A stretch of DNA of 59,907 nt, filler included, from Basidiobolus ranarum (taxonomy: Eukaryota), in assembly GCA_040143965.1 (NCBI GenBank). It is 3 parts of 3 records of this genome, joined end to end, with 100 filler letters (N's around TTAATTAATTAA, not from the genome) between each part and the next. Parts side by side here need not be neighbours in the genome. Positions count along the whole stretch, not along the records: positions 40,038 to 59,907 come from JASJQH010007116.1; 2 more parts are not named here. The stretch is one strand, 5' to 3'. Both the position numbers and the translations under genes were made by a program. Positions 700 through 51,236 of this stretch are shown one piece after another. Each line of letters starts with the position of its first letter. The first letter of the stretch is position 1. Below the pieces are notes generated by a model, which was given only the letters and a program-made list of their open reading frames with translations, had not been told where the DNA came from and ran no database searches.

Positions 700-1824
700 C
701 CTGATTACTATATAAATGAATCCCAAAATTGGGCCTATGCATGCACAGCTCAAATACATGAACCTCAGACTGTAAGTGAGGCCCAAATGGCCCTCACATA
801 AATTTTGGAGATTTGTAATGGCTGATGAGCTCCAGGCTTTGATTGATAATCAAACCTGGATTTTAACCAACTTACCTGATGATAGAAAATCAATTGGCTT
901 CCAGTGGGTGTTTAAAGTAAAATATAACTTTGATGGCAATATAGAGAGGTATAAGGCTAGACTCATAGCCAAAGGCTGTTCCTAAGCACTAAGAATAGAT
1001 TACATAGAAACTTTTGCTCTTGTAGCAAAGTTTAATTTGATTAGATTGATTTTAGCAATTTCAACTAAATATCAGTTTGTTATACATTAAATGGATGTTA
1101 AAACTGCTTTTTTGAATGGTGAGCTTGCTGAGAGGATCCATATGGACCACCCAGACAAATATATTGACCCAGAAAACCCTAAAAAAGCTTACAGACTCTT
1201 GAAAACATTCTATGGCTTAAATCAATCTCCAAGAGCTTGGAATAGCAACATAGATGCTTTTTTGGAAACACTCAAATTCCAAAAGAGTAATGCTAACTAT
1301 AGTATGTACATCAGGCCAGATAACACAAACCCAGTTCTACTAGCCTTATATCTAGATGGCCTTATTATAGCAACCAATGACTTAAAGACTCTAGAGAGAA
1401 CCAAATCCAGCTCATCTGCCAAATTCAAAATGACTGATCTTGGTAAACTCATGTACTATCTGGAAATCCAAATTAAGATAGATAGAACTACCAAAACAAT
1501 AACTTTAAACCAGTCTAAGTATATTCTAGATACACTAAAGAAGGTTAAAATGGAAAAATGGAATTCAGTATCTATCCCAATGGAGACAAATCTTGACTTG
1601 ACCAAAAATGGCTCAAATTAGATGTTCATGTATTCAAATGAAAGCCAGAAATTTCCTTATCAATCTATGTTTGGTAGCTTGATATATATCATGGCTGGAA
1701 CACAGTTAGATATTGCATATTCTGTGGGAGTTATGTGCCAATATCCTTGAAATTATGGATCTGTACTAATTGTAATCATAGCAGTTAAGCAGATTTTCAG
1801 ATATTTTAAAGGTACTGTGGAACT
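700..1824 (+). mobile_element. Degenerate Ty1/copia pol remnant (reverse transcriptase)
   Basis: Motifs WVFKVK...RYKARLIAKG, MDVKTAFLNG, YGLNQSPRAW, LYLDG (decayed YVDD), KFKMTDLG; several stops and frameshifts. Confidence 0.92.
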
Positions 1825-19926: not shown

Positions 19927-20026
19927 NNNNNNNNNNNNNNNNNNNNNNNNNNNNNNNNNNNNNNNNNNNNTTAATTAATTAANNNNNNNNNNNNNNNNNN
20001 NNNNNNNNNNNNNNNNNNNNNNNNNN
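19927..20026. other. Artificial 100-nt contig spacer
   Basis: N run with a central TTAATTAATTAA (stops in all frames). Confidence 0.98.
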
Positions 20027-21452: not shown

Positions 21453-22064
21453 TTAGTAACCACATCGCTCTTTCACTTGAGCGATATCAGTCACATTTGC
21501 AAACAGATCTCCGTAGCTATTTGAGTACTGATCATACACTTTCACCCAGTTTTGTACACAATCAGTGCACAGTCTTTCGTTAGGAATATCTTGTAGGTCC
21601 ACATCTTGATGGCCTTTTAGTTCGTCTCCCTCTACAATGAGACAGTACTGTTGTTGTGAATTCTGGGCACATTCGACAGCTATGAGTGGCTCGTAGTTCT
21701 TAAATGCATACTCAAGTATTTGTACCACTGTTTGTGATAGATCCTCCGAACACTCTGTCCGAACCTTTGTGGCTAAAGCATCCGTGATCGTCTTGTCACA
21801 TCGTGGTGCGGAACACATTGTGTCTAAGAGCGTGGTGTACTGGTCTACCTTAGTTGAATCATAGTTCTCCCAGTCGATCGAGCTAGTTTGTGACCATATC
21901 TGACTGAAAGGTAAGCAAGGTTCATTACCTGTTACTATAGAGAGTAGTGATTGTTTACAGGTAGCTGAGAGTTGGCCAAGTATGTTATCTACTGGTGCAG
22001 CATTGGTGAACAGAGGTGCGGCAGCGATCAAAGCTAATGAGAGAGCGAATTTCATGGTGGACAA
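21453..22064 (-). CDS. Secreted 10-Cys protein, paralog B; intronless
   Basis: Signal peptide and the same Cys spacing as paralog A. Confidence 0.88.
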   Translation of the reverse strand: MSTMKFALSLALIAAAPLFTNAAPVDNILGQLSATCKQSLLSIVTGNEPCLPFSQIWSQTSSIDWENYDSTKVDQYTTLLDTMCSAPRCDKTITDALATKVRTECSEDLSQTVVQILEYAFKNYEPLIAVECAQNSQQQYCLIVEGDELKGHQDVDLQDIPNERLCTDCVQNWVKVYDQYSNSYGDLFANVTDIAQVKERCGY

Positions 22065-22344
22065 TGCTGTTGAATGTTATATTGGTTTTATATTTCTGTA
22101 TAGAATATTGACCGGGGTAAGGCGCTTTTATAAACTCAAAGGTTTGAGTGGGCACTTGCTAAGCCCATAAGAAAATGATTTTTGGGCTGATTTTACATGA
22201 GTACGAATCAAATGTGAGTGGTGTTCTTACGTTGGTTGGATATTCATGTGAGGCTAGGGGCAGAGTTACAGGAAGGGAAGGGAAAGGAAATTAATATACA
22301 GAAGTAATTCATCTAGCAGTAATTAAAGAGTAGCTTTGTCTTGC

Positions 22345-39937: not shown

Positions 39938-40037
39938 NNNNNNNNNNNNNNNNNNNNNNNNNNNNNNNNNNNNNNNNNNNNTTAATTAATTAANNNNNNN
40001 NNNNNNNNNNNNNNNNNNNNNNNNNNNNNNNNNNNNN
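39938..40037. other. Artificial 100-nt contig spacer
   Basis: N run with a central TTAATTAATTAA. Confidence 0.98.
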
Positions 40038-43446: not shown

Positions 43447-43491
43447 TGATTTAACGATGTCTGATTTAACGATGTCTGATTTAACGATGTC
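43447..43491 (-). repeat. 3 x 15-bp tandem repeat spanning the CHD1 stop codon
   Basis: (TGATTTAACGATGTC)3 on the plus strand. Confidence 0.95.
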
Positions 43492-46400
43492 TGCTACTGC
43501 GTGTATGCTTTCTATGTTTGCGAGACCCAAAATCCGAACCAGAGTCGTCATCATGATCTCGGGATCTGCGTCTTTTGTTGTCATTGCTAGAGCGTTCACT
43601 TGAACGGCGATCGCTCTTTCTTCTATCACTACTTTTGGAGGCTGACTTTCCAGCTTCTAGTTTTTCGTAAAGAGCAACCAATTTCTTATGAGAAACTGTC
43701 CTAGGCCAGAAGTAGGATGCAAATACCCAGAGATGTTTGCGCCATTTATCTTTCTCGTTTCTTTTCTGTTGTACGAGTTCCTCGATTTTACGCCCAATTA
43801 TGGTCATGCACTCTTTGATCATGGCAACCTTGTCACTCTCAGAGTTGCATCGATTAGAATCTTCTCGAAGGCGACGAAGCTCGCGTTTAACTGGACGAAG
43901 CATATCCTTACATACCATCTCATCCATACTTTCGTATTCAGAACCGTTACTGGAATCCTCTTCCTCTGATTTAGGCTTGGGAGAGGGTGATCTACGTTTA
44001 TGCTTGTGACTGGCCTTCTTCTTTTCGGGCAACTCTATATCTGCGGTTTCTTTGGTTTTTTTCGACGCGGAGGGTTTAGGTTGATGTTTACCGGTGGCCC
44101 GACCATCCCTTTCTTTCTGATACTTTTGTTTGGTTTCCTCAGATTCGCGTAATGCTTTAAGGAGATAATCACCACGTCTCACAAGAGAATTAGCTGTCTT
44201 AGTAGATACTTTCGTGGCATCTTCTTTGGTAAATTTAGAATGCAGTCCGAGGCTGCGATCCTCCTTGATCTTATCCCAATTACCAAAACCATGTTTGAAT
44301 ATACCAACCAGAAGCATGGCATCATCTTTTTGCCCCCACTTGCTACTTAATTTATAAGGCTTAAGCGGAAAAGAGAGTCTAAACTTCTCCAGATTAGTGT
44401 CGTCTAGACGATTGGAGAGACAAGTCAGATCTGCAACCCGCTGTACCAAAGCACCGGCATTAATAGCAGGCACTCCATTGAAGACAGCATGGACTACCTT
44501 GCCGCCACGCTTATTAGATGCTTCCTCCTCGCTACCTTCTTTTTTCAGAGCTTTCTCGCAAGTTTTGATTAGCTCATCAGCTTGCTGAATGATCATTTCC
44601 CGGCCTTTTTCTTCCAAATCCGCATCTTCCACGATAAGATCGTAACGAAGCCGGATATCGCCGAATTTTAACATAGAACGAACTAGCGCTTTGACATCTT
44701 TGTCATTAAGTTCATCATCTGCCTTTCCTCTTGTTCGTCTACTAGCTGCTCTGCGACGTTTACCCTTCTCTTCCACCTCGCCGTTATTCATAGCGGCTCG
44801 GCCGTCGTCGGCATATGAAACTACATTTCTTTTACGAGAAGTCCATAGTAATTCATCCTCTTGGGCCTTCTCCTCTTCTTCGATGCGCTTTCGTTGACGT
44901 TCAGGTATAATATCCTCCCATGATAAATCAGCACCAGCCTCGTAATCGGTAACTACAAACTGGTTCAAGAAATCCGCACCACCATCAGTCGCTCCCTGTT
45001 CCTCGGTAGTCTCATGATGTTCGGCTCTAGCCAATATATCATCGAGATCCAAATCATCTAGCTTCTTTTGGTTGTCATGTTCTTTGAACATATTTGAAGC
45101 ACCAAATTTCAAAATGGCCGACAGCTCTTCTTTACTAAATGGGTTTCCGGTGCTTTTTGGTACAGATTTTTGAAGAAGACTTAGCCCCGATGTATCCATC
45201 TGTTTGATAATACAATATTCAAGAACCATCTTACGCTTAGCACGTTCGATAATGTCTTCTTCCATTGTATCCTTGGAAACGAATCGATAAACGTTGACAT
45301 GATTCTTTTGCCCGATACGATGAGCACGAGCCATAGCTTGAAGATCGTTTTGAGGATTCCAATCAGAGTCAAATATAATAACAGTATCTGCAGTTTCAAG
45401 ATTGATGCCCAGGCCACCAGCACGAGTTGAGAGAATGAATACAAAATCTGGAGATCCAGGGGCATTGAAATGCTCAATGGACTTTTTACGAGCTTCTGAA
45501 CCAACACTCCCATCCAAACGTTGGAAGGGATAGCCGCGCAAGCTAAGGTAGTCACTCATTATGTCTAATAAGCGAACCATTTGAGAGAAGATCAATACGC
45601 GATGCCCATCTTTGCGTAGCCGGGTGAGTAATTTGTCTAACAATACCATTTTACCACTGTTCATAATGATTCCTTTCAGCTGTTCGTTCTTCTGAGAACT
45701 GTAAACCTCGGCACTGGGGAAAAGATATGGGTGATTGCTGGCCTTTTTTAGTTCGACCGCGATATTGAGAAGACTTAGTTGCCCCGGGCCACTCACGCCC
45801 TTGTTGAGAACGTTGAAATTCTTGGAGAGGATATTTTTGTAATAATGAATTTGCAAAGGTGCCAGTTCAACACGTAAGATACGTTCCGTTTTACTTGGTA
45901 GTGACTTTTCGACATCTTTTTTTAGTCTTCTCAACATGTAGGGTCGTAAACGCTCATGCAGTTCGCGAATCTTCTCTTCTTGATCCTCTTCACCGACATT
46001 AATCTCAAAGCTTCCACTGAGATCAAATTTATCTGGCATCAAGAAATGAACTAATGCATAGAGTTCTTTGACAGAGTTTTGAAGTGGTGTACCAGTAACA
46101 AGCAGGCGATTGACTGTATGGAAATCTTTGAGCGTCTCATGTAACTGTGAGTCATTGTTCTTTAACCTGTGGGCTTCATCCACCGCCAAGTATTGCCATT
46201 TGATGGCTCCTAATTCAGCGCGGTCTTTCAAAACTAACTCGAAAGTGGTCAAACATACATTCATCTTGAGCTTTCTGGTAGCGGCATTAGAGTTGACGTA
46301 GAACTCATGCTCGCGAATGATCCCTCGAGATTTGTTGTCACCAATGTAACAGATAAGATTCATGTCAGGCGCCCATTTGGCAAACTCTCGCTGCCATGCT

Positions 46401-49009
46401 CCAATAGTAGAAAGCGGAACTACAACCAAGAAGGGGCCATATATCTTCATTGTATGAAACAAATAGGAGAGGATTGCTATTGTTTGCACCGTTTTACCCA
46501 ACCCCATCTCATCAGCCAGAATACCATTTTCATTACGCGACCATAAATATGCCATCCAGTTCAAACTGTGTAGTTGGTAATCACGAAGCTCACCACCAAT
46601 AAGATAATCTGGCTGTTGGGTAATCTTTTTGAATGTTGGACGTTCTTTGCTGTAGGACGTACTTTTGAATGGTAAGGTTTGACTTCTATCACGATCCAGA
46701 AACGCATCGATTTCATTTTGAAAGTCCCCGGATATAAGATCTGCAGGCTCCCAAGTCGATGCTTGATATGGAAGTCTCCTCCACTTGCAGAAGTATTCAG
46801 TAATGGGATAAGGTCTCTCCTCCGAAGGCTCTGTTTCTCTGGAGGCAATGATGCGCTCCACTGTTTTGTAATCTTTGAGCATATCCCTTTCGATTTCCAT
46901 GTTGATGTCATGCTGCTCTATCTCCTCGCGACTAACCTCGGGATCTATTCTCATTTGCTGATCCTCCATGACTATATTACGGATATAATTATCCAGCTTC
47001 TTGATTCCTTTGAATCCTTTGAGGTACTCGTATTTGTCCCAGGTATTATGGAGATGACTGTATTTTTTCCACTTGATAAGAAATTCAAGATTCTCGATAT
47101 ATTCGTCAGGATCCTCTACACAAGAAGAATCTAGCTCAAAGACATTAACAATCAGATTGAAGATTCACTAATAAATATTCAAACGTACCAGCGCCTTCAA
47201 CGAGTCTAAAGTCATGAACACTATCAATGACATCACCTTCATCCTCTTCGGTGACTGGTGTAGGGGCATAACCTTCATTGAAACTATTCTCTCCTTCGGA
47301 ACTAACTCCAAGAATGTCATTTTCGTTGTAGCTTTTAACTGAGCGATTTCGCGTTGAAAACCGAACTTCAGGTACGGGAGACTCTGTGGGACTACGGAAG
47401 GCTCTTGAAACCACTAAAGGATAGAGATTCCTTAGATTAATAAACGATATCAAACAATACCACAGCTAACTGAGAACGTACACTTCCTCCTTCGTGAAGC
47501 CTTTTTCTTAGATCCCCATTCTCCATCACTAGAATTAGACTCTAGACCGTTTTGTATACGAACATTTTCCACCTCATCATCTTCATCCATAATGAATCTG
47601 CTTCCTATAATAGTGGTAATGTATTGGGAATGGCTCATTTCAACTTGCTCGATATACTTGGCTACTTACTTTTGGCGGCTGTTCTACGAGTGTTAGAAGT
47701 CTTCAAACTAGTTTTTTTCTTTTTGTTTCGAGAACCATAATCACTACCACTGTCTTCTCCGGATTGTTCAGATTCATCACTTGAAGGTAACGATTCAAAA
47801 TCATCCTCAGACTCATCTTCAGACTCAGAATTCTAACAAGGTGAAGAGAACCGAATTAATACTAATACTTCCATAGCTAGAGTGTACACATATTTTAAAA
47901 AAGGATGTACTGTACCCTATTTGTGTCATTTGGTAAATGTGGACGCGATGAACGACGCAATCCGAAGAGGTCTGGATCATATGCACTTGTATTGGATTCA
48001 CGACTTGCTCCAAGAGGATTGACACGTCTCTTTGGTGGTGGAATTTGCATGGAATCATCAGAACCAGCAATCTCTTCGAAAGTATCTTCGATTATATGAT
48101 TATCTTGAGAAATTTCATCGGAAAATTCACTTTCGGAGTGATGAATATCTTTGTTGGCTTCGAATCCATCTACCTCTTCACTACACTCTTCTTCGATGAT
48201 CCTTTTGTTGGATTTAAGTGTTGGTTTTCTCTCCATTTCACTTTCACTACTTCCTTCTGGTGATCGAACAACGGGTGCGGACCGATTCTGTCGCCTCAGA
48301 TCAACTCCACTAGAGCCACCAAGGTCAGAGTCATAATCAGACGCAGATACTGATACTACGCTTTCGTTGTCCTCTTCACCCTCACTGGCGCTTCTGAGTC
48401 CGTCATACGGGGTATCTACCTCTGTTGCTATTATCAATTCGAGTAAATAACAAGAATTTGAACAACATGAAAGTAACACGAATCGAAAAAAAAAATAGAA
48501 AGCAAAAGGTAAAATGGTTAGATGAAGATCTAATGATACACGTATAGTCTATAAAATGTTAATGTTTGTCTTGATCATCTGATAGTAACAAAAAACAAGA
48601 GGGGTATGAACAAAAAACGTTTAGACAAAAGAAAGTGTTATGTAATAATAACAAACGGTTTTCAGAGAACTTGGATTTACTCTTGATGCTCAGAAAGCAC
48701 GTACGAGTATTTCTTTTACACAAATTCGAAATTATCTAAGCCATTCAGGGAAATAAAAGTATCTAAAGCTTCAATATATCTTTAAATAGGAAAAAGGGAA
48801 AGGAAATATGGGTGTGTTTAAGTAACACACAAAATATTCACGTTAGGAGGATAACCGAACATAACGAAAGGCTCGATTATATATTCTTGTGAAAAGTATA
48901 TTACAAAAACGACTTGTTTGATTGAAAAAAAAACCAGAAAGAAAAACAATACAGTGCTAGATGATCAAGACACACAGAGTCGTTGGAGAAAAAGAAACAT
49001 ACCAGCCAT
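43481..49009 (-). CDS. CHD1: Chromodomain helicase CHD1/Hrp1-like remodeler, multi-exon
   Basis: Chromodomains, LADEMGLGKT, DEAH, FILSTRAGGLGINL, QAMARAHRIGQ, SANT/SLIDE region, C-terminal helical domain. The 7-nt first coding exon (ATGGCTG, 49009-49003) splices in phase to 48427. Confidence 0.96.
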
Positions 49010-49800
49010 ATACGACGCCAATATAACAAAACAGTTGAGGGTAGGCTTTAAGGGCTAGGCAGGGTCAGTCCAATATAATATATAGAGGGGATACAGTGAG
49101 TGTAAGTTGAGTAATAACACTAAGGATAGGGATTATATTGAGGAAAAGCGTATATCTAGTCTAAATGGTTAGCCAAGTTAGGAGGGTAGTTTAGCTGAAA
49201 GAAGGTAAAAAATTTCAAATCATCGATGATTTATTTTACTTCGGTATATTCTAAGCACCAAGCACCCAGTATCCTATTTTGCCCTAGCCCTCACAACCAT
49301 TTCTCCCGTGCCATTCATTGATTGAATAATTTTGACGAATAGACATTAAACGAGAAAACTTTTTTAGAATTTTCTTTTACCTAGTTTGTTTACACTGCTA
49401 ATTGGAATACCTCTCATTGTTTTCGAGAATTGACGACAGCAACCAATGGTAAAATTGCTAAGACGCGTGAATATCTACTCATTTTGCTTTCCTTTCTGAA
49501 TACTGTGAATTATTTTTGTCCACGTGTATAGGTCTATTGAGGTCGCTTAGTTGGACAATCACGAATTCGCATTGAAATTTTAAAATCATCGCTTTTCAGA
49601 TGACTTTCGTAATGTGGATAAAAATAGTAGAAACAATCTACGATAATAGAGTTGAACTCCAATAATTTATTTTACCAAAGTCAAATGAATACCGCGCATC
49701 TGTTTCTTGTTTGCGTACCCTGTTACTTTGTTATACTTGCCAAGGCATCATCGTTGTAGATTGTATATCTTGGTTATATACTCCTTCAGATTAGTGATCT

Positions 49801-51236
49801 ATGCATTCTTTAAGTCAAAATAATGGGAGCCAACAGCTTCAACAGTATCTACAACTAAACCAGGGTGGGTTCAAGAATTCCAGCTCTTTAGGTGGTTTAA
49901 ACCAGAGCAACTCGAATTCTGTTATGACCAAAAACCAATCCTCTTTAGCTTTGAATAGTGGTACCACAAACATACAAAGCTCAAATAACGCGTTGAATGA
50001 TTCATACTATGGCGTGAATAGCGTCGGAGGTGGCAACGGCAGTGGTACTTTACCAGTACAATATGGACAACAGCAAAGATACACAATGTTGGAAGAGGAG
50101 ACCATCTATTCCTTTATCCTGGATCTCTTTCATCCTGATGCTCGCGAGCAAGCTCTAACGCAGCTGGCGAAAAGACGCGAGACTTTTGAAGATCTCGCTG
50201 TGGTTTTATGGAATTCTTATGGTAAATCTAAACTGAAATATTATTTTTTTGTGAAACGTACTAAATATTCTTTTCGACCAAAATCAGGGGTTATGTCGAT
50301 TTTGCTCCAAGAGATTGTCAATGTGTATCCACTCCTTGACTCTGAACTCCCTTCTGCCATTTCGAACCGTGTTTGTAATTCACTCGCCCTTCTTCAGTGC
50401 GTCGCGAGTCACACTGAGACGAGATTACCTTTTCTTAGTAGTATGTGTTGAAATTAACCATTCACTTATTACAATTCTCTAACCTAATATATTGGACCCC
50501 ATAGCCCATTTCCCCTATTTTTTGTATCCCATGCTAAATACTACTGACAATGCCAAACCTTTCGAATATTTACGTCTTACTGCGTTAGGGGTTATTGGAG
50601 CGCTTGTCAAGGTACGTATTTATTTATACTTGGTATTCTACTTGCTCAATTATAAATACTTCTACATGGTATAGCAAGATTGCCCTGAGGTAGTCAGCTT
50701 TTTGTTGAACACCGAAATCATCCCAATCTGCCTTCGAATTATGAACCACGGGGCGGAGCTTTCAAAAACTGTAAGGTTTCAATGCTATTTGCTTATATAC
50801 TTCTTTAACTAAATCGAAATTACTTAAATCATTAGGTCGCTATTTTTATTTTGCAGAAGATTCTCCAAGATGACTATGGATTGTTGTATATTTGTCAGAC
50901 TTACGAACGCTTTTCTGCTGTTATTACAGTGCTTGAAAATATGGTCATGCATCTTACTGAGAGTCAATCAAGTCGGCTATTGAAACATGTTATACGCTGC
51001 TACCTTCGCCTAACCGAAAATCAAAGGTTTGCTACTTGCAGGTTACTTTAATTATTTATGTTGGACACTAACGCGTACTGATTGTGTTTAGAGCACGCGA
51101 GGCTCTTCGTGCTTGTTTACCCGTGCCTCTGCGTGATAATACCTTTGCTCCAATATTAAAGGACGATATAGTTGTTAAAAGAGCTCTTAATCAACTGCTA
51201 GTCTCGTTTTCTGAAGGTGGCATGTCTGCCAACTAG
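49801..51236 (+). CDS. CAF40: CCR4-NOT subunit Rcd1/Caf40/CNOT9, multi-exon
   Basis: [80 protein letters not shown]. Confidence 0.96.

Follow-up and report, generated by a model that had tools for sequence, protein, structure and literature searches.

A predicted long-range helix in the oversized first intron of a Basidiobolus ranarum CHD1 gene

The first intron of CHD1 and its host gene

The CHD1 gene of Basidiobolus ranarum raises the question of how an intron far longer than its neighbours is removed directly behind a coding exon of 7 nt, and what part a long-range inverted repeat inside this intron may play. The gene is located on the minus strand of the window, i.e., the whole stretch of DNA that was analyzed (59,907 nt including filler), and its features are collected in Table 1. 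Its first intron is about eight times as long as the neighbouring ones (58-83 nt for the other CHD1 introns), the local norm being taken from the introns of CHD1 and from a few other clear short introns; a window-wide prediction of introns by joining ORFs was too noisy. The unusual length had been pointed out in an earlier note on this DNA, and it is borne out, as are all sequence features listed there, which were found at their coordinates when the minus strand was read and checked by script.

The assignment of the host gene to CHD1, also made in the earlier note, agrees with its Pfam domains and with an orthologue from Basidiobolus meristosporus, the nearest annotated relative for this gene. 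The product carries the domains SNF2-rel_dom (5e-88), Chromo (two stretches), Helicase_C, HTH_CHD1_Hrp3, Cdh1_DBD_1 and CHD1-like_C. It thereby shows the double chromodomain, the SNF2 ATPase with Helicase_C and the DNA-binding/C-terminal region of the CHD1 class, and it is 91% identical to the CHD1-type protein P0001 of B. meristosporus. Removal of intron 1 and of the four short introns leaves a single open frame of 1559 codons.

Splicing of exon 1 to exon 2 gives a protein starting with MAATEVD, and the model of the B. meristosporus protein P0121 (ORY08126.1) begins with MAAATEVDTPYDG (N-terminus MAAATEVD). The junction between exons 1 and 2 is the one implied by this orthologue model, and the remaining exon junctions agree with P0121 as well. 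At the level of predicted proteins, the N-terminal model from B. meristosporus supports both the 7-nt coding micro-exon and the 575-nt intron. Exon 2 is 73% identical to residues 5-174 of the same protein (E = 4e-68). Protein searches with exon 2 matched P0121 and, weakly, a metagenomic fragment of 114 amino acids (P0122) only, with no transcript-derived N-terminus among the matches. Of the 81 pattern stretches matched when metagenomes were scanned with the N-terminal alignment, none was confirmed as a relative.

All five CHD1 introns end with TAG. A U12-type intron was ruled out for intron 1, as its 5′ site reads GTATGT rather than [AG]TATCCTT. The downstream CTAAC at about 48520 and the U-rich tract, both claimed in the earlier note, are present. 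Because this distal CTAAC is followed by an AG-free zone of 102 nt, which reaches the used TAG (no AG between 48531 and 48429) and comprises the U-rich tract, it is the putative branch point of intron 1. The distance from the 5′ splice site to this branch would be 484 nt. A weaker alternative branch motif, TTTAC at 48447-48443, is located 16 nt from the 3′ splice site.

An Rfam scan of the intron (E up to 10) yielded no credible family, the three matches being implausible (E = 7-9) and far below the gathering scores, and a canonical box C (UGAUGA) was not seen in the intron by eye. Since the scan gave no family and the window holds no second copy of the arms of the repeat or of its interior, there appears to be no other element that would account for the length of the intron. 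A T-rich direct similarity between 48921-48964 and 48482-48525 outscores all 500 mononucleotide shuffles; it is of low complexity, and nothing is concluded from it.

Table 1. Features of the CHD1 gene and its first intron, with positions along the window
Feature	Coordinates	Strand	Description
Exon 1, coding part	49003..49009	-	ATGGCTG, coding for Met, Ala and base 1 of codon 3; 7-nt micro-exon
Intron 1	48428..49002	-	575 nt, GTATGT...TAG, U2-type signals, 45% T, 13% G
Helix, 5′ arm	48959..48976	-	TGTGTGTCTTGATCATCT; begins 26 nt past the first intron base
Proximal CTAAC, branch-point-like	48842..48846	-	Inside the loop; next AG 62 nt downstream
7-bp hairpin	48812..48830	-	GTGTGTTACTTAAACACAC (GTGTGTT/AACACAC); downstream of the proximal CTAAC, ahead of the candidate acceptors
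Candidate acceptors	AAG ending 48780, TAG ending 48763	-	Read from the sequence
Candidate pseudo- or poison exon	48705..48779 (75 nt, AAG) or 48705-48762 (58 nt, TAG)	-	In-frame stops
Donor-like GTACGT closing the candidate exon	48699..48704	-	Same hexamer opens CHD1 introns 4 and 5
Helix, 3′ arm	48563..48580	-	AGATGATCAAGACAAACA; its end lies 44 nt upstream of the branch A in the distal CTAAC
AG-free pyrimidine-rich tract	48430..48530	-	Leads to the 3′ splice site TAG (48430-48428)
Distal CTAAC, putative branch point	48517..48521	-	Branch A 48518; 90 nt from the 3′ splice site
Exon 2	47916..48427	-	Acidic, serine-rich CHD1 N-terminal region
CHD1 introns 2-5	47833-47915, 47605-47669, 47414-47481, 47131-47188	-	83, 65, 68 and 58 nt
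Rest of CHD1 (introns 2-5, exons 3-6, stop codon)	43481..47915	-	Pfam, comparison with P0001/P0121, reading frame

The inverted repeat and the segment that it encloses

The two arms of the repeat, each 18 nt long and separated by 378 nt, are 94% complementary. Inverted-repeat analysis reproduced the 17 pairs out of 18, 14 of them contiguous, that had been claimed for them. The duplex has an energy of -22.7 kcal/mol, and the helix is predicted to form: the MFE and centroid structures computed for the intron both contain it, and the pair probabilities over the 17 paired positions are 0.72-1.00 in a context of 775 nt. The 5′ arm contains the donor-like hexamer GTGTGT, and a pyrimidine-rich block free of AG ends with the AG formed by the first two bases of the 3′ arm. 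No clear contrast in predicted accessibility was found between the real and the decoy splice sites. The helix is confirmed as a feature of the sequence; its formation in vivo and any effect on splicing are inferred.

Outside of runs of N, this is the sole exact inverted repeat of at least 14 nt (loop up to 800) in the window. Any inverted repeat with 17 of 18 pairs arose in one of 300 dinucleotide shuffles of the intron, and among 214 pairs of donor-like and branch-like sites in the window the runner-up has no more than 10 contiguous base pairs in the same zones, compared with 14 bp here. Some exact inverted repeat of 14 nt was found in 46 of 200 shuffled windows, and therefore the helix is noteworthy for its location, not for its existence. 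The RNAduplex energy was dropped as a statistic for bridging (zipper) stems, as loose, loopy duplexes in ordinary genomic sequence score equally: in the 80-nt zones the real pair ranks 55th of 214 (mean of the window pairs -22.1 kcal/mol), and in 112 of 2000 shuffles these zones likewise yield a duplex of -22.7 kcal/mol or lower.

The enclosed segment contains everything that the earlier note had listed between the arms, i.e., a CTAAC, the 7-bp hairpin, a pyrimidine tract, both acceptors and GTACGT, and the reuse of this hexamer by other introns is likewise real. Together these signals would delimit an exon of 75 or 58 nt. Its inclusion would be translated as MADILKL* in the longer and as MADTFISLNGLDNFEFV* in the shorter version, in keeping with the stop codon that had been claimed for either of them. 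The full set of signals occurs in 15 of 2000 shuffles under strict and in 216 of 2000 under relaxed criteria of exon-likeness, both of which were chosen after the case was seen.

Possible roles of the helix

[quoted passage not shown] Most likely it just aids the removal of an oversized intron. Intron 1 would then be an ordinary U2-type intron, in spite of its length and its position directly after the micro-exon. By joining a site 26 nt past the 5′ splice site to a site 44 nt before the distal CTAAC, the stem would leave a linker of ~70 nt, which is within the range of the other whole introns of the gene. The loop-out of 378 nt with its decoys (CTAAC, pyrimidine tract, AG, then GTACGT) would be a by-product, and the internal 'exon' a pseudo-exon that is skipped as a rule. 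The signals of this pseudo-exon are somewhat better than chance by the strict shuffle count, which a plain zipper does not need. The stem may go back to an old insertion with inverted ends, and its mode of action would be unaffected by such an origin.

Provided that the distal CTAAC is the branch point, the distances of 26, 44, and 70 nt all agree with the positional criteria for zipper stems in S. cerevisiae, and the 17 of 18 pairs with 14 contiguous ones and -22.7 kcal/mol agree with the pairing criterion (PMC12350175); these criteria derive from modelling of the yeast spliceosome and may not hold for Basidiobolus. According to a rough hand estimate, random placement of two arms in the 484-nt span gives this geometry in ~1.5% of cases. 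With the branch at TTTAC (48444) instead, the linker would be 144 nt long and exceed the S. cerevisiae limit of 85 nt. As the RPL28 case described in the same study indicates, not all yeast zipper stems promote splicing (PMC12350175).

It is somewhat unlikely that the helix has no present function. In that case the repeat would have arisen by chance or be what is left of the terminal inverted repeats of an insertion of ~414 nt (MITE or foldback) in a former intron of ~160 nt, with the internal signals incidental. The frequency of exact 14-nt repeats in shuffled windows fits a chance match, against which the rarity of a 17/18 repeat among the intron shuffles has to be set. An insertion would agree with the AT-rich, non-coding interior and with a copia-type RT fragment, which attests mobile DNA in the window. 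The earlier note had raised the possibility that the arms match the terminal repeats of a multi-copy MITE. The inverted repeat is present, but no duplicated target site is seen beside the arms, as the flanks ...AACGACTC and TTAACATT..., read from the sequence, have no common direct repeat of the kind expected for MITE or TIR insertions. Other copies were not found in the window either, neither of the interior nor of the arms, which have no extra exact match and two matches with two mismatches, compared with about one expected. Moreover, even an insertion-derived helix of 18 bp with a pair probability near 1 would act on the pre-mRNA anyway.

The earlier note had favoured a structure-gated poison exon, a reading that we consider improbable. 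[quoted passage not shown] The loop does hold a complete set of signals (CTAAC, 61 nt free of AG, a pyrimidine tract, AG and GTACGT 75 nt further on), this set is rare in shuffles, and both versions of the exon bring an early stop; however, what counts as exon-like was fixed post hoc, and stops and pyrimidine tracts are cheap in a T-rich, AG-poor intron. The first acceptor after the proximal CTAAC is AAG, unlike the TAG of all five CHD1 introns, and even the two sub-introns (223 and 277 nt) would greatly exceed the local norm. The position of the arms on both sides of the candidate exon is matched by human exons looped out by complementary regions, which are described as less included (PMC8052449), and long-distance pairing is described to govern alternative splicing in a large intron of N. 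crassa (PMC3597705). In fungi, by contrast, skipped or cassette exons account for ~3% of alternative-splicing events (PMC3925392), and the fungal SRSF5 orthologue is reported to employ intron retention and no poison cassette exon (PMC4379411). A variant in which the helix acts as a switch instead of a fixed brace is given slightly less credence still: in transcripts with unpaired arms the 5′ splice site would be joined to the proximal acceptor, and the mRNA would gain the stop exon of 75 or 58 nt and be destroyed, whereby the dose of the remodeller would be tuned. The proximal branch site and acceptor are transcribed ~200 nt ahead of the 3′ arm, and pairing might fail, for example, because commitment is fast, because of the temperature, or because a helicase acts or a protein occupies one of the arms.

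Unproductive splicing in fungi usually takes the form of intron retention. If intron 1 as a whole were retained in a regulated manner, the product would be MAGMFLFLQRLCVS* and the transcript would decay, the stem only tuning the efficiency of splicing. The unspliced frame indeed ends after 14 codons (frame 1 ORF 49054-48968), 61% of fungal alternative-splicing events are given as intron retention (PMC3925392), and the NMD-triggering retained intron of fungal SRSF5 orthologues is described as notably long (PMC4379411). Nevertheless, this is very unlikely, as the sequence has no specific pointer to regulation over constitutive splicing. Most unlikely of all is a stepwise or nested removal (stwintron-like or recursive), in which two to three consecutive reactions would use internal sites and the stem would order the steps. 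Nested fungal introns with inverted termini are on record (PMC8469720), and intron 1 comprises three AG-free pyrimidine-rich blocks, each with a CTAAC- or CTAAAC-like motif ahead of it and an AG at its end (48780, 48579, and 48428), as well as internal donor-like hexamers at 48975, 48830, and 48704. However, none of the 17 internal AGs precedes a T[AG]NGT with which the G of exon 1 could form a new donor, the best being GTAAAT, which also rules out a [D1,2] stwintron with an internal intron splitting the outer donor between G and T. Multiple steps are not demanded by anything in the sequence.

Comparison with known systems

In another fungal pre-mRNA, pairing of introns with themselves reportedly decides which splice sites are joined, each intron pairing within itself so that the middle exon is retained. 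Unlike this system, the single CHD1 helix spans the candidate exon and would exclude rather than keep it. A preprint reportedly concerns the zipper stem of the S. cerevisiae RPL7B intron, and a study by Raker et al. from 2009 is said to deal with the looping-out of animal exons by flanking complementary intronic regions.

Zipper stems are described for long introns of S. cerevisiae, e.g., in RPS17B, RPL7A, and RPL7B (Rangan et al., 2025; PMC12350175). As in the yeast introns of 400-500 nt treated there, the CHD1 helix would tie a site soon after the 5′ splice site to one soon before the branch point, it falls within the criteria for all three distances, and it is well over the minimum of 6 bp. 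In contrast to the yeast cases, it belongs to the Zoopagomycota and not to the Saccharomycotina, in a genome whose other introns are short and numerous; it is predicted from sequence and folding, with a putative branch point, and its loop holds a full decoy exon.

In animals, exons are described to be looped out when the introns on either side contain complementary regions (Kalmykova et al., 2021; PMC8052449). Two complementary intronic boxes around an exon-like segment are common to both systems, and looping accompanies lower inclusion in the animal exons described there, whereas the enclosed 'exon' of CHD1 is a candidate and Basidiobolus probably splices by intron definition. The large intron of N. 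crassa NCU01977, in which long-distance base pairing over ~530 nt is under the control of a TPP riboswitch (Li and Breaker, 2013; PMC3597705), is a fungal intron of similar size, and its helix near the 5′ splice site is described to determine whether splicing is productive or not. The N. crassa helix belongs to a ligand-binding aptamer, whereas no riboswitch or other Rfam family was found in the CHD1 intron by the Rfam scan.

Poison cassette exons coupled to NMD are described, e.g., for animal SR protein genes (Lareau and Brenner, 2015; PMC4379411). Like these, the CHD1 candidate would be a short stop-bearing exon within an intron of a dosage-sensitive regulator; unlike these, it is a prediction from the DNA, and the fungal orthologue treated in that study shows intron retention instead of a cassette. 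Symmetrical introns and stwintrons of the Hypoxylaceae carry terminal inverted repeats of 45-55 nt (Fekete et al., 2021; PMC8469720). These are spliceosomal fungal introns as well, whose inverted repeats are able to fold the intron on itself and which, as described, lack flanking duplications. Their repeats are terminal, longer, and from proliferating multi-copy families, whereas the CHD1 arms are located 26 and 135 nt inside the intron ends, are single-copy in 60 kb, and come without a split donor.

Measured against these sources, the earlier claim that the arrangement is undescribed in fungi stands for the full combination only. It fails for long-range intron pairing that controls splicing, which is described in S. 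cerevisiae (PMC12350175) and N. crassa (PMC3597705).

The whole picture amounts to a well-formed prediction at the sequence level. If the helix were a switch, early-diverging fungi would have their first case of a structure-gated poison cassette exon, and a poison exon, if real, would add decay coupled to RNA-structure-gated exon skipping to a fungal repertoire that is thought to be mainly intron retention. If the bridging reading is true, zipper-type stems would not be peculiar to ribosomal-protein introns of budding yeast, and the case would come from Basidiobolus (Zoopagomycota), a lineage far from the Saccharomycotina. With one strong helix and one decoy exon, the intron would be a clean test case, in which breakage of the stem is predicted to give a stop-bearing mis-spliced form. 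On the bridging reading, stems of this type would be a general means by which fungi with short introns tolerate an occasional very long one.

CHD1 and its first intron

The host gene was identified as CHD1, as the earlier note had it, by its Pfam domains (see table) and by 91% identity of its large downstream ORF to P0001, a related protein of Basidiobolus meristosporus CBS 931.73 (second-best match 57%); the DNA of the window accordingly derives from a Basidiobolus-type fungus. This CHD1-family gene lies on the minus strand, with the 575-nt intron and the two arms at its 5′ end, and its six joined exons form a single open frame of 1559 codons with the N-terminus MAATEVDTPYDG. Introns 2–5 measure 83, 65, 68 and 58 nt, which makes intron 1 exceptional within the gene. 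All five introns end in TAG, and two of introns 2–5 begin with GTACGT, so the donor hexamer noticed inside intron 1 is indeed used by other introns.

A query with exon 2 against 1.84 billion representative proteins returned one clear relative, P0121 (B. meristosporus ORY08126.1, 299 aa; E = 4e-68, 73% identity), whose gene shares a 287,976-bp contig with that of P0001. It starts with MAAATEVDTPYDG and matches exactly the junctions predicted for exons 2|3, 3|4 and 4|5; the relative's annotation thus also has, before the same acceptor, a tiny exon encoding Met-Ala(-Ala). This annotated protein model lends good indirect support to the predicted micro-exon and first intron. Transcript-derived proteins spanning the CHD1 N-terminus were not found in the protein collections searched. 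The B. meristosporus orthologue is annotated as two models on one contig, of 299 aa (N-terminus) and 1260 aa (rest), and the single frame in the window (43481-49009) suggests that the relative's gene was mis-split.

Upstream of the CHD1 start (~49161-49250, minus strand) the sequence ...CCTCCTAACTTGGCTAACCATTTAG resembles the 3′ part of another short intron in the 5′-UTR, with branch point and acceptor, and GTAAAA near 49247 may be a weak donor. Two motifs of this region, CCTCCTAAC and CTAACCATTT, are found again within intron 1. CHD1 and its divergent Rcd1/CAF40-like neighbour may share a bidirectional promoter, as the distance of ~790 bp between their start regions suggests. Elsewhere, the window carries remains of a retroelement, as a reverse transcriptase fragment shows.

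Features of the CHD1 locus and of the rest of the window
Feature	Position	Strand	Details
CHD1 exons 1–6	49009-49003, 48427-47916, 47832-47670, 47604-47482, 47413-47189, 47130-43481	-	joined reading frame
Large downstream CHD1 ORF	43484-47164	-	SNF2-rel_dom (5e-88), two chromodomain stretches, Helicase_C, HTH_CHD1_Hrp3, CHD1-like_C
CHD1 intron 1	49002-48428	-	575 nt
5′ arm / 3′ arm	48959-48976 / 48563-48580	-	17/18 pairs, 14 contiguous
Proximal CTAAC	48846-48842	-	
7-bp hairpin	48830-48812	-	
Acceptor-like AAG / TAG	ending 48780 / 48763	-	
Donor-like GTACGT	48704	-	
Distal CTAAC	48521-48517	-	followed by U-rich tract
Rcd1/CAF40-like gene	49798-50448	+	PF04078, 2e-24
ORF fragment, copia-type reverse transcriptase	1091-1618	+	RVT_2, 1.4e-39
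Tandem paralogous ORFs, 207 aa	20281-20901, 21456-22076	-	both match DUF7729
Two 100-nt N runs	19927-20026, 39938-40037		~20 kb apart

A long-range helix in intron 1

The complementarity of the arms was confirmed, and the predicted energy of their duplex is -22.7 kcal/mol. The helix is present in both the predicted minimum free energy and centroid structures of intron 1, and when 775 nt of pre-mRNA are folded, its 17 pairs have predicted probabilities between 0.72 and 1.00. The whole intron has a folding z-score of -2.16, with 4 of 100 shuffles folding equally well or better. With the N runs set aside, the window has no exact inverted repeat of at least 14 nt (loop at most 800) other than the arms, and a 17/18 inverted repeat of any kind arose in 1 of 300 intron shuffles. 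As genomic background, each donor-like hexamer of the window was paired with each branch-like motif 300-700 nt downstream (n = 214 pairs); in equivalent zones the next best contiguous helix has 10 bp, versus 14 in intron 1. By permissive RNAduplex energy in 80-nt zones, intron 1 ranks 55th of the 214 and is not separated from this background, and -22.7 kcal/mol is reached by 112 of 2000 shuffles. Since 46 of 200 dinucleotide-shuffled windows hold an exact 14-nt inverted repeat of some kind, the helix is notable by its location, not its existence. A 44-nt direct similarity (48482-48525 versus 48921-48964; 73%, with a 26-nt core at 85%), mostly T-runs, joins the tract directly past the 5′ arm with that past the distal CTAAC.

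The 5′ arm begins 26 nt past the first intron base, and the 3′ arm ends 44 nt upstream of the putative branch A (48518) in the distal CTAAC, which is followed by a U-rich tract as the earlier note described. Zipper stems, which link the 5′ splice site side to the branch-point side in long S. cerevisiae introns, are defined by Rangan et al. (2025; PMC12350175) by a minimum helix length of 6 bp and three further conditions, including a total linker of 42-85 nt. The helix falls within all of these limits, with a linker of 70 nt, if 48518 is taken as branch A. Once formed, it would shrink the 484-nt distance from 5′ splice site to branch to roughly the size of an ordinary CHD1 intron. An AG-free stretch of 102 nt between the distal CTAAC and the used TAG fits first-AG selection from that branch. 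As a caveat, the 90 nt from this putative branch point to the acceptor is long for the gene. There is also a weaker candidate, TTTAC, at 16 nt from the acceptor; as branch point it would give a linker of 144 nt, outside the yeast-derived range, and the helix would still take 396 nt off the path. That the helix acts as a zipper-type bridging stem, letting the oversized intron leave accurately in one step and excluding a decoy exon, is a tentative reading that falls a little short of an even chance; by analogy, the favoured mechanism would be that of the S. cerevisiae zipper stems (PMC12350175).

The candidate exon and other explanations

The earlier note had proposed that pairing of the arms loops out a poison exon (48705-48779 or 48705-48762). 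Its component signals were all recovered: the proximal CTAAC, the hairpin, both acceptor-like AGs, the donor-like hexamer and, on inclusion, an in-frame stop after DILKL or DTFISLNGLDNFEFV. They form a coherent order of CTAAC, 61 AG-free nt, pyrimidine tract, AG and, 75 nt further on, the GTACGT donor. Dinucleotide shuffles of the intron interior produced a comparable set in 15 of 2000 cases under strict and 216 of 2000 under relaxed criteria, and the true significance lies between the two because the exon-like criteria were chosen after seeing the case. Against a regulated poison exon, the acceptor nearest the proximal CTAAC would be AAG, whereas all 5 CHD1 introns use TAG, and both sub-introns (223 and 277 nt) would be well above normal length. 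Moreover, intron 1 is 45% T and 13% G, which makes pyrimidine tracts, AG-free zones and stops cheap. Three AG-free, pyrimidine-rich blocks of ~91-102 nt exist within 48428-48873 (minus strand), each after a CTAAC- or CTAAAC-like motif, with closing AGs at 48780, 48579 and 48428; the 3′ arm opens with the AG at 48579, so that a further cryptic acceptor, the third, would be covered by the helix. Fungal alternative splicing comprises ~3% skipped exons versus 61% intron retention (PMC3925392), and in the fungal SRSF5 orthologue, unproductive splicing takes the form of a notably long retained intron, not a cassette exon (PMC4379411). A regulated poison exon is judged improbable; regulated retention of the whole intron 1 is judged less probable again, and its stepwise removal very improbable. 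A nested intron with a split donor was excluded by the sequence, as T[AG]NGT follows none of the internal AGs.

A chance match or insertion relic of no present function is unlikely but deserves more weight. If a MITE or foldback element of ~414 nt had entered a once 160-nt intron, this would account for the present length as well as for where the arms lie. However, no target-site duplication was seen adjoining the arms, and the window holds no second arm copy (2 two-mismatch matches versus ~1 expected) and no other copy of the intron interior. An insertion origin would, besides, leave the effect of the helix on the RNA intact. An Rfam search of 48200-49400 with E up to 10 gave nothing credible, so this region contains no recognisable snoRNA or riboswitch. 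A metagenome scan for orthologous DNA, sought for covariation, gave 81 pattern matches, 0 of them confirmed.

Precedents and meaning

The loop-out idea corresponds to a principle documented for human exons (PMC8052449). A fungal precedent for long-distance pairing is the N. crassa TPP riboswitch, where pairing over ~530 nt determines which splice sites of a large intron are used (PMC3597705). The proliferating intron families with inverted termini of Hypoxylaceae differ from CHD1 intron 1 in the length and position of the repeats and in copy number (PMC8469720). Literature searches on fungal poison exons and on Basidiobolus introns or transcriptomes gave no paper that describes a fungal poison cassette exon gated by structure. 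The claim that the arrangement is undescribed in fungi therefore holds for the full combination, which would be new, but not for its components, each of which is already known. The features listed in the earlier note are all in place, and its interpretation is partly supported. The bridging-stem case yields a sharp experimental prediction.
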